Shown one piece after another: positions 50,646-52,043 of a stretch of 64,000 nucleotides of DNA. Numbering within the stretch: the stretch's first letter is position 1; each line of letters opens with the position of its first letter. Source of the stretch: an uncultured Candidatus Saccharibacteria bacterium (GTDB lineage: Bacteria > Patescibacteriota > Doudnabacteria > UBA920); assembly GCA_964512925.1 (NCBI GenBank), contig CAZEKH010000002.1:122505-186504 (forward strand), read 5' to 3'. The position numbers and the translations under genes were made by a program. Below the pieces are notes generated by a model. That model was not told the DNA's origin and ran no database searches. It saw only the letters and a program-made list of their open reading frames with translations.

Positions 50646-50698
50646 TTTGTCATCCCGGACTTGCCTGCCCGCCTTTGGCGGGATCCGGGATCTAGAGT
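50646..50698. repeat. Palindromic element, guaB-flanking family, copy 1 (TTTGTCATCCCGGAC...GCCCGCC-ttt-GGCGGG ATCCGGGATCTAGAGTT)
   Basis: Nested hairpins. The ends are near-identical to the copy at 51996. Confidence 0.65.
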
Positions 50699-50846
50699 TA
50701 TTGCCAATAATATAAGAAGTTAATATACCACTGGATCCCAGATATTTTTCAGTTAAAGCCCTGAAAAATTCTAGTATGACACACAATTTATAAGTAATTT
50801 AAGCCAATTTGCGTAAGGTAAATTACTAAACCCTAAAACCTATACC

Positions 50847-52013
50847 CTAATCCCTATCTCCATAATTCGGAGCTTTTTTTACGATCTGCACATCGTGCAC
50901 GTGACTTTCCCTCAGGCCCGCTCCGGTGATCTGGACAAACTCCGCGTTTTTTTGCAGCGCTGAAATATTTTTTGCCCCCACATACCCCATCCCGCTTCTC
51001 AGGCCGCCGACCAGCTGTTCAATGATGGGCACAACTCCGCCCTTGTACAAAACCCTGGCTTCCACGCCTTCTGGCACCAGTTTTCCGCCCACCACATCGT
51101 CCTGGCCGTAACGGTCTTTACTGCCAACATTCATTGCTCCTAAACTGCCCATTCCCCGGTAAGATTTATACCATTTCCCATGGTCTTCAAACTTTTGTCC
51201 CGGCGCCTCGTCTGTGCCCGCAAACAAAGACCCCACCATCACAGCCGAAGCCCCGGCTGCCAGAGCTTTGGTGATGTCGCCGGACAGCTTGATTCCCCCG
51301 TCAGCCACGACCGGAATTTTTTTGGTTTTGCAAACTCTGACAGCTTCAAGAATAGCAGTCAGCTGCGGCACACCGCAGCCGGAAACCATCCGCGTGGTGC
51401 AGATACTACCAGGACCGATCCCGACTTTCACACCGTCAGCCCCAGCTCTAACCAAAGCCAGAGCTCCCTGGGCAGTTGCTACATTGCCGGCTATTACTTG
51501 CGCTTGTTTATATTTTTTCTTAATCTGCCTGACTGCTTCTAAAACCCGCTTTGAGTGTCCGTGCGCCGTATCCACCACCAGCGCATCCGCGCCCGCATTC
51601 AGCAGAGCCCCCGCCCTTTCCAAAAAATCCCCAGTCGCGCCCACCCCGGCTCCAACCATAAACCTACCCTTTGCATCCAAACTCTCTATCTTTCTATCTC
51701 TCTTATTCTCTTGCTCTCTGATTCTCTGAAGTTCTGATTTTACTAATCTAACTTCTTCCGCCTGCTTTTCAACTGACAAATTTTTATGGATGACCCCGAG
51801 CCCCCCCTCAGAAGCCATAGCAATAGCCATCCGGTGCTCTGTCACCGTATCCATTGCGCTGGACAAAACAGGAATTTTTAACTTAATTTTTTTAGTTAAA
51901 AAAGTTTCAGTTAAAACTTCGGTCGGCACGACTTCGCTATACTGAGGCGCCAGTAAAACATCGTCAAAACTCAAAGCGAGAGAAATTTTTTTCATTTTAA
52001 TTTGATTTGTCAT
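50847..52013 (-). CDS. guaB: IMP dehydrogenase lacking the CBS (Bateman) subdomain
   Basis: Catalytic-loop region ([10 protein letters not shown]) and [24 protein letters not shown]. The CBS pair is replaced by an ~30-aa charged linker. The annotated first 6 codons (MTNQIK) derive from repeat copy 2, and the native start is probably the Met at 51995. Confidence 0.85.
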
Positions 52014-52043
52014 CCCGGAACCCGCCCAAAACGGATATCCGGG
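51996..52043. repeat. Palindromic element, guaB-flanking family, copy 2; overlaps the guaB start
   Basis: TTTGTCATCCCGGAA-cccgcccaaaacggat-ATCCGGGATCCAGGGTT. Confidence 0.65.

Follow-up and report, generated by a model that had tools for sequence, protein, structure and literature searches.

The IMP dehydrogenase gene guaB of an uncultured Candidatus Saccharibacteria bacterium lies in a 64-kb stretch of contig CAZEKH010000002.1 (the window, i.e. all 64,000 nucleotides analysed), where it is bracketed by short palindromic units. These units are very probably CGTC-tagged repetitive extragenic palindromes (REPs). A previous reading of this DNA, made from its letters (the sequence-only reading), had described two copies of a palindromic repeat, one of which was thought to extend the N-terminus of the enzyme. 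The two copies and their shared ends were confirmed, a third, decayed hairpin was found to have been missed, and the ATG provided by the element is probably not used as a start codon.

We searched the window for the pattern TTTGTCATCCCGGA-N(15-45)-ATCCGGGATC and compared the outcome with 100 dinucleotide-preserving shuffles. Two exact matches were found, as against 0.00 expected. Both copies have in common the ends TTTGTCATCCCGGA and ATCCGGGATCyAGrGTT and differ in the cores between them, and the 10-mer TCATCCCGGA has exact matches in the window in these two copies only. The shared ends are real and not due to chance. A fuzzy scan of the 64 kb, allowing up to 2 substitutions per arm, yielded no further good copy. 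The positions had to be corrected: copy 1, previously given as 50646-50698, extends to 50699, and copy 2, previously given as 51996-52043, had been shifted by 10 nt (Table 1).

In copies 1 and 2, the arms ATCCCGGA and TCCGGGAT form 8 perfect pairs, the stem opening with A-T/T-A; the tag is TGTC in both, and the tail is CTA in copy 1 and CCA in copy 2. The arms enclose 24 nt in copy 1 and 18 nt in copy 2; one of these is a bulged A, so that the loops themselves measure 23 and 17 nt, and they contain a nested stem. Copy 1 has an inverted partner 37 nt away, which is decayed and reads TGG-ATCCCAGA-T-ATTTTTCAG-TTAAAGCC-CTGAAAAAT-TCTAGTAT-GACA; the two make up a 134-nt inverted dimer that takes up a large part of the spacer between guaB and recQ. 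Copy 2 stands alone. A candidate decayed partner for it at about 52120-52150 was rejected, since this hairpin, followed by GAAGACAAA, more plausibly belongs to the upstream gene of 1474 amino acids as its terminator-like hairpin.

Table 1. Positions of the REP units, their parts, and the genes and start codons around them (numbering of the window)
Feature	Position	Strand	Basis
recQ, downstream neighbour	48428-50569	-	ORF list; P0122, 713 aa, start identical
REP copy 1, left unit of head-head dimer	50646-50699	+	sequence, pattern match
Copy 1 tag TGTC	50648-50651	+	sequence
Copy 1 5' arm ATCCCGGA	50652-50659	+	sequence
Copy 1 expanded loop, CTTGCCTG then nested stem CCCGCC/TTT/GGCGGG	50660-50682	+	sequence
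Copy 1 bulged A	50683	+	sequence
Copy 1 3' arm TCCGGGAT	50684-50691	+	sequence
Copy 1 tail CTA	50692-50694	+	sequence
Dimer spacer, 37 nt, A/T-rich, separates the two tails	50695-50731	.	sequence
Decayed inverted partner REP (third unit)	50732-50781	-	sequence, RNA fold
Decayed partner tail TGG	50732-50734	-	sequence
Decayed partner arm ATCCCAGA	50735-50742	-	sequence
Decayed partner bulge T	50743	-	sequence
Decayed partner nested stem ATTTTTCAG/CTGAAAAAT	50744-50769	-	sequence
Decayed partner arm TCTAGTAT	50770-50777	-	sequence
Decayed partner tag GACA	50778-50781	-	sequence
guaB (IMP dehydrogenase), corrected start, 382 aa	50847-51995	-	P0001, homologues, Pfam IMPDH
ATG2, second Met, six codons downstream of ATG1	51993-51995	-	sequence
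REP copy 2, singleton	52006-52053	+	sequence, pattern match
Copy 2 tag TGTC	52008-52011	+	sequence
ATG1, start of longest guaB ORF, supplied by REP	52011-52013	-	ORF list
Copy 2 5' arm ATCCCGGA	52012-52019	+	sequence
Copy 2 expanded loop	52020-52036	+	sequence
Copy 2 bulged A	52037	+	sequence
Copy 2 3' arm TCCGGGAT	52038-52045	+	sequence
Copy 2 tail CCA	52046-52048	+	sequence
1474-aa ORF upstream of guaB	52170-56594	-	ORF list

The family was identified with the help of a paper by Di Nocera, De Gregorio & Rocco (2013, BMC Genomics 14:522; PMC3733652), which distinguishes two REP superfamilies by an unpaired terminal tag, GTAG or CGTC. CGTC REPs are described there as having the tag CGTC, often TGTC or CCTC, stems of 8-9 bp that nearly always open with complementary A-T residues, loops of 4-5 nt (other lengths occurring in some CGTC-1 and CGTC-3 sets), and an unpaired tail with the consensus CCA. 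Head-head dimers with the tags outside predominate, most units are intergenic, between unidirectional or convergent genes, and no dedicated transposase is known for them, unlike for GTAG REPs. The window units resemble this description in their (C/T)GTC tag, 8-bp A-T/T-A stem, CCA-like tail, extragenic position (both sites lie between co-directional minus-strand genes) and lack of a linked transposase, as well as in the head-head dimers with 20-100 nt spacers and the overlap with mis-called N-termini. What the sequence-only reading took for a new 'second family' therefore matches a superfamily described in 2013. Its idea of a mobile element was right insofar as the family is palindromic, dispersed and probably once mobile, and wrong in that no real N-terminal extension was created. 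By format alone (8-bp stem and 5-nt basal loop) the nearest published family is CGTC-2. Neither a new kind of system nor a purine-specific regulator is revealed.

The start codon of guaB

The longest open reading frame (ORF) of guaB begins at an ATG (ATG1) that is the reverse complement of the CAT in TGTCAT of copy 2, and that is in frame with a second ATG (ATG2), with no stop in between. The sequence-only reading had called ATG1 the annotated start and ascribed six codons (MTNQIK) to the element. The window carries no annotation, however, and the ATG in question is merely the longest-ORF start. Furthermore, the shared element sequence within the long ORF is limited to ATGACAAA (8 nt, 52006-52013), which covers 2.7 codons; the remainder of the MTNQIK codons (TCAAATTAAA) is local leader, not common to copy 1 (ATGACAAAGTGCAC...).

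The same reading had proposed that the native start was the downstream Met, and on this point it was borne out. The NCBI-derived protein P0001 (382 residues), which is 100% identical to the window IMP dehydrogenase, begins at the second Met; a 388-residue version stems from a Logan assembly gene call. We compared the N-termini of the 70 best GuaB homologues. About 60 of these 70 have 8-10 residues before FDDVLL, as in MKKIELALT-FDDVLL, and read from ATG2 the window GuaB starts with MKKISLALS-FDDVLL, matching the homologue length exactly. The longer N-termini found among the homologues were unrelated to one another. Three related guaB loci (69-74% protein identity) have their start codon at the position that corresponds to ATG2. 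The hairpin predicted for the RNA of copy 2 (-21.7 kcal/mol) pairs the A and the U of ATG1 within its 8-bp stem; ATG2 is in an A-rich stretch free of structure, 16 nt past the stem. A GGGCGGG upstream of ATG1, conceivably Shine-Dalgarno-like, sits inside the nested stem of the hairpin, and since most window genes have no Shine-Dalgarno motif, there is no ribosome-binding-site argument favouring ATG1.

Because of the homologue N-termini, the NCBI start, the pairing of ATG1 and the three related loci, the N-terminal extension is best read as a gene-calling artefact and the second ATG as the true guaB start. It is very unlikely that the element gives guaB a genuine extension MTNQIK-, as reported for some Rickettsia palindromic elements (RPEs), even though the frame stays open from ATG1 to ATG2 and PMC3733652 cites the expression of N-termini bearing RPEs in Rickettsia conorii. 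The same paper states that REPs overlapping predicted N-termini are mostly extragenic, the starts being mis-called. The ATG inside the tag-stem junction is incidental and misleads longest-ORF gene calling. This is a more general caveat: every inverted CGTC REP ends in ...GGGATGAC, carrying an ATG that longest-ORF callers can adopt when the unit has come to lie in frame ahead of a gene. Here, it adds six spurious residues to IMP dehydrogenase.

Relatives in other phyla and possible mobility

To find relatives, GTCATCCCGGA-N(10-40)-TCCGGGATC was scanned in one genome per species, which gave at least 120 loci; all counts below (on 152, 137, 105 or 158 units, and on their subsets) are among the matches listed. 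The hosts comprise Alpha-, Gamma- and Deltaproteobacteria, Comamonadaceae, Binatia, Omnitrophota, Chloroflexota, Fibrobacter, Chitinivibrionales, Balneolaceae, Cryomorphaceae, Bacteroidota, Saccharibacteria, Parcubacteria and other Patescibacteria. Unlike those of the published CGTC REPs, these hosts thus include Patescibacteria (the candidate phyla radiation, CPR), Omnitrophota, Fibrobacter, Chloroflexota and Binatia, which are outside the five phyla listed in PMC3733652. The little-studied CGTC superfamily is thereby extended to Patescibacteria, Omnitrophota, Fibrobacterota, Chloroflexota and Binatia, a modest step beyond those five.

The base before GTC was C in 93, T in 52 and G in 7 of the 152 units, and the tail was CCA in 75 of them. 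The outer stem is conserved and the inner part is highly variable (141 distinct inner sequences) yet self-complementary: if one bulged base is permitted on the 3' side, the inner part contributes on average 3.6 further pairs, vs 0.6 in shuffles. The bulge position is occupied by A in 129 of the 152. The expanded-loop variant with a conserved bulged A, documented here and widespread, is likewise a modest extension. A generic CGTC REP in inverted orientation was present within 200 nt on the tail side of 102 of 137 units and on the tag side of 20, the spacing in the 102 related dimers being mostly about 20-40 nt. In loci with a GC content of at most 0.48, 35 of 36 copies were outside ORFs of 120 amino acids or more. 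A short-loop form, GTCATCCCGGACTTGATCCGGGATCCA, with an identical stem and the 5-nt loop CTTGA, was found at four loci (L086, L115, L123 and L130). Copy 1 reads as this form with a 19-nt insertion after CTTG, and its first 22 nt are shared with a copy in an Allosphingosinicella metagenome-assembled genome (MAG; locus L059).

An Omnitrophota MAG (L058) has two full dimers within its hyp operon, in the hypF-hypC and hypD-hypE gaps, which shows the same intercistronic habit as in the window. These two dimers (2540-2665 and 4188-4320) are near-identical; what chiefly sets them apart is a different or longer segment at the tip of the second hairpin (CTGCG vs TCCGCCAGAGGCGGA), so that loop apices may be hot spots for nested insertions; the locus also has an extra partial 3' end at about 2688-2712. 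Heterodimers of a ATCCCGGA unit with other CGTC types (e.g. ...GGGATCTAGATTCCCGCTTTCGCGGGAATGACA) were observed in L130 (2695-2750), L125 and L123, indicating that different CGTC stem types coexist and combine within one element.

The sequence-only reading had also suspected a targeting of purine genes. This did not hold, since across the at least 120 loci the element adjoins unrelated genes, e.g. hypF, hypC, hypD, hypE, leuS and sodA. The comparison of guaB loci that it had proposed was carried out and disclosed no conserved leader: the three related loci mentioned above (69-74% protein identity) have no REP either upstream or downstream of guaB. A full-text literature search with sequence words and with peptide words from spurious translation returned only irrelevant primer matches.

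Since 2013, the literature citing PMC3733652 has not settled how the REPs of the CGTC superfamily are mobilised. We found no target-site duplication: direct repeats flanking the 105 listed dimers were about as frequent as in shuffled flank pairs, being slightly commoner at 3 nt (18 vs 9.6 in the shuffles). No match at E<=1 to E. coli RAYT or IS200 TnpA was obtained by tblastn, a search of limited sensitivity that covered 941 kb of loci plus the window. An association of such hairpins with genes for small GIY-YIG nucleases was considered and dropped because tblastn found none in the 941 kb, again at limited sensitivity. The REP-rich metagenomic locus L123 contained no transposase domains, only ordinary genes. 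The units would have arrived by a duplication-free copy or insertion process acting on a single-stranded hairpin, as in REP/REPIN elements.

A further observation concerned what we call a 'stutter'. Of 158 listed full CGTC REPs, 21 have 1-3 orphan halves consisting of the tag and the 5' arm (GTCATCCCGG, with at most 1 mismatch). These halves are in direct orientation, no more than 80 nt upstream and with no 3' arm in between, and the estimated chance rate is about 0.002 per REP. Examples are L017, L054, L056, L058, L086, L094, L099, L115, L117 and L123; in L117, cGTCATCCCGGAAACCCCGGCA occurs three times ahead of a complete hairpin. The stutter recurs across phyla, spans from the tag to the loop apex, and is not mentioned in the sections of PMC3733652 consulted. 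It may be the footprint of a copying mechanism, and could arise by re-initiation at the tag with a template switch at the loop apex. One may go further and suppose that REPs with the ATCCCGGA core are perhaps still propagating in the tiny CPR genomes, mobilised by a conserved housekeeping enzyme acting on single-strand hairpins or by an outside agent (such as a phage or a host), with the stutter as the footprint of the copying; we regard this as unlikely. If it were true, the minimal gene sets of CPR bacteria would allow the mobilising enzyme to be traced by setting genomes that carry the element against those that lack it.

Hairpin folding and alternative readings

Copy 1 was predicted to fold as RNA at -25.5 kcal/mol in the mRNA sense (z = -3.9) and at -22.9 kcal/mol on the opposite strand; folded as DNA, it gave -13.0 kcal/mol (z = -3.4). 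For copy 2, the mRNA-sense value given above compared with -15.8 kcal/mol on the opposite strand, and for the decayed partner the minus-strand RNA gave -14.6 kcal/mol (z = -3.6), with G-U pairs, and the plus-strand RNA -8.7 kcal/mol. The mRNA sense is thus favoured in all three window hairpins, by a margin of 2.6-5.9 kcal/mol, since several of their pairs form as G-U there and not on the opposite strand. These predicted folds would fit the part classically given to REPs as transcribed hairpins, that of stabilising mRNA or acting as a barrier to processing; any function of the window REPs is one that we infer. Once in place, the units would be transcribed with the flanking genes and would act, if at all, as stable RNA hairpins, which could buffer mRNA decay or processing between cistrons.

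Several observations weigh against the window units being CGTC REPs placed and transcribed in this way. Their loops, which measure 17-23 nt and come with a nested stem and a bulged A, are at variance with the 4-5 nt of PMC3733652, and two good copies plus one decayed copy are visible in 64 kb, for a superfamily characterised by many copies per genome. No pair of filled and empty sites in close strains could be found, the nearest GuaB being only 74% and the nearest RecQ only 60% identical at the protein level. The guaB promoter was not located, so that transcription through copy 2 is an assumption. Lastly, in 21 unidirectional contexts of other genomes the fold of the transcribed strand was not significantly better (13 vs 7, mean -0.17 kcal/mol), which means that RNA-level selection is not general.

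A more specific proposal is that copy 2 has been co-opted as a control hairpin in the 5'-untranslated region of guaB, tuning translation or protecting the 5' end of the mRNA, with the 3' dimer playing a stabilising role. The stability of the hairpins and its bias to the mRNA sense would agree with this, as would the location of the real start in an unstructured A-rich stretch directly past the stem, in a genome where, Shine-Dalgarno motifs being mostly absent, local structure may weigh more; PMC3733652 also proposes post-transcriptional roles for REPs near 5' ends. We nevertheless consider it rather unlikely, since the hairpin is not conserved at guaB in relatives, the same kind of element adjoins unrelated genes elsewhere, and the predicted fold of the 101-nt leader has a z-score of only -1.4. 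A dedicated guaB leader or riboswitch was set aside as unlikely for want of an Rfam match and because of its absence from the three related guaB loci; Rfam, searched at the gathering threshold on the whole window and at E<=10 on 50400-52300, returned nothing at the element. An intrinsic terminator is also unlikely, as no T-run follows either copy and terminator-like sites are found elsewhere (50593-50605).

The perfect 8-bp inverted repeat upstream of two same-strand genes might suggest an operator at which a dimeric transcription factor co-regulates guaB and recQ. This is exceedingly improbable: half-sites are 5-50 nt apart among family members and occur in identical form beside unrelated genes at the at least 120 loci in unrelated phyla, the inner part covaries as a stem, and copy 1 is upstream of a terminator-like hairpin rather than adjoining the recQ promoter region. 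An inverted dimer of about 100-134 nt with conserved ends facing outward would also be expected of a classical miniature inverted-repeat transposable element (MITE) derived from a DDE-type insertion sequence (IS), or of a RAYT-mobilised GTAG REPIN. Flanking direct repeats at the level of shuffled pairs, a (C/T)GTC instead of a GTAG tag, the lack of RAYT or IS200 similarity within the limits of the tblastn search, and the absence of transposase domains in L123 make this highly improbable as well.

CGTC REPs, as we take the window units to be, nevertheless share traits with such systems. GTAG REPs and REPINs (Nunvar 2010; Bertels & Rainey 2011) are also short tagged hairpins, mostly in inverted doublets with the tags outside, intergenic, free of target duplication and presumably handled as single-stranded hairpins; unlike the window REPs, they have a GTAG tag, a single-copy RAYT gene flanked by REPs, and lineage-specific sequences. 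DDE-type MITEs (Correia elements, Coxiella QMITE1/2; PMC5896051) are similarly small, non-coding, dispersed and ended by inverted repeats, and can alter the expression of neighbouring genes or ORF calls. They differ by IS-derived terminal repeats and by target-site duplications (7-11 nt for QMITE2; PMC5896051), flanking repeats being at chance level in our case. Other members of the CGTC superfamily were compared too. Neisseria dRS3 belongs to CGTC-1, and the Rickettsia elements RPE-4 and RPE-6 to CGTC-4, according to PMC3733652. They share the superfamily anatomy with the window units, and RPEs also land inside or at the ends of predicted ORFs. They differ by their stem sequence, dRS3 being ATTCCC-N8-GGGAAT, and by their arrangement in clustered arrays or as in-frame insertions within genes; the window shows neither arrangement.

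Gene context and other features of the window

The three neighbouring genes (the 1474-amino-acid ORF, guaB and recQ) are all on the minus strand. Behind guaB, the REP dimer separates the stop codon from a terminator-like hairpin (50593-50605), which precedes a promoter-like TATAAT of recQ, and the single unit of copy 2 is 16 nt upstream of the real guaB start. A promoter scan between the upstream gene and copy 2 found no sigma-70-type promoter for guaB. The sole promoter-like match used the ATGACA of the REP as a -35 box and was rejected, as transcription would then begin within the coding sequence.

The best named RecQ homologues were mostly from Patescibacteria (candidate phyla), with at most 60% identity; together with the 23S rRNA insertions described below, this points to a host that is probably a Patescibacteria lineage. 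The guaB product and its closest homologues (356-394 residues) have no CBS (PF00571) pair in precomputed Pfam lists; CBS is present in more distant IMP dehydrogenase matches of about 485-500 residues. The lack of a Shine-Dalgarno motif in most window genes was noted upstream of long ORFs, e.g. at 50570-50589, 48380-48399, 2421-2440 and 39655-39674. Many window genes have a TATAAT-like box just 5-8 nt before the ATG, e.g. ttgttataatggatgaATG for recQ, and boxes so near the ATG suggest that leaderless or very short-leader transcripts may be widespread.

Another palindromic family, TGTCAAC...ATATGT...GTTTGACA, has 3 copies in the window (58597-58655, 62424-62462 and 62545-62603; 39-54 nt, 77-100% identity). 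It looks like an operator or inverted-repeat site and is unrelated to the REPs. The other family of the sequence-only reading comprises CCCTCCCC-N6-GGGGAGGG hairpins at 3752-3781, 7384-7413 and 40074-40103; these lack both the (C/T)GTC tag and a stem opening with A-T and are therefore not CGTC REPs. Finally, a 23S rRNA match at 17224-20855 on the minus strand measures 3632 nt, vs 2925 nt for the model, corresponding to insertions of about 700 nt, and contains three copies of an A/T-rich 27-nt repeat (at 17300, 19894 and 20497).

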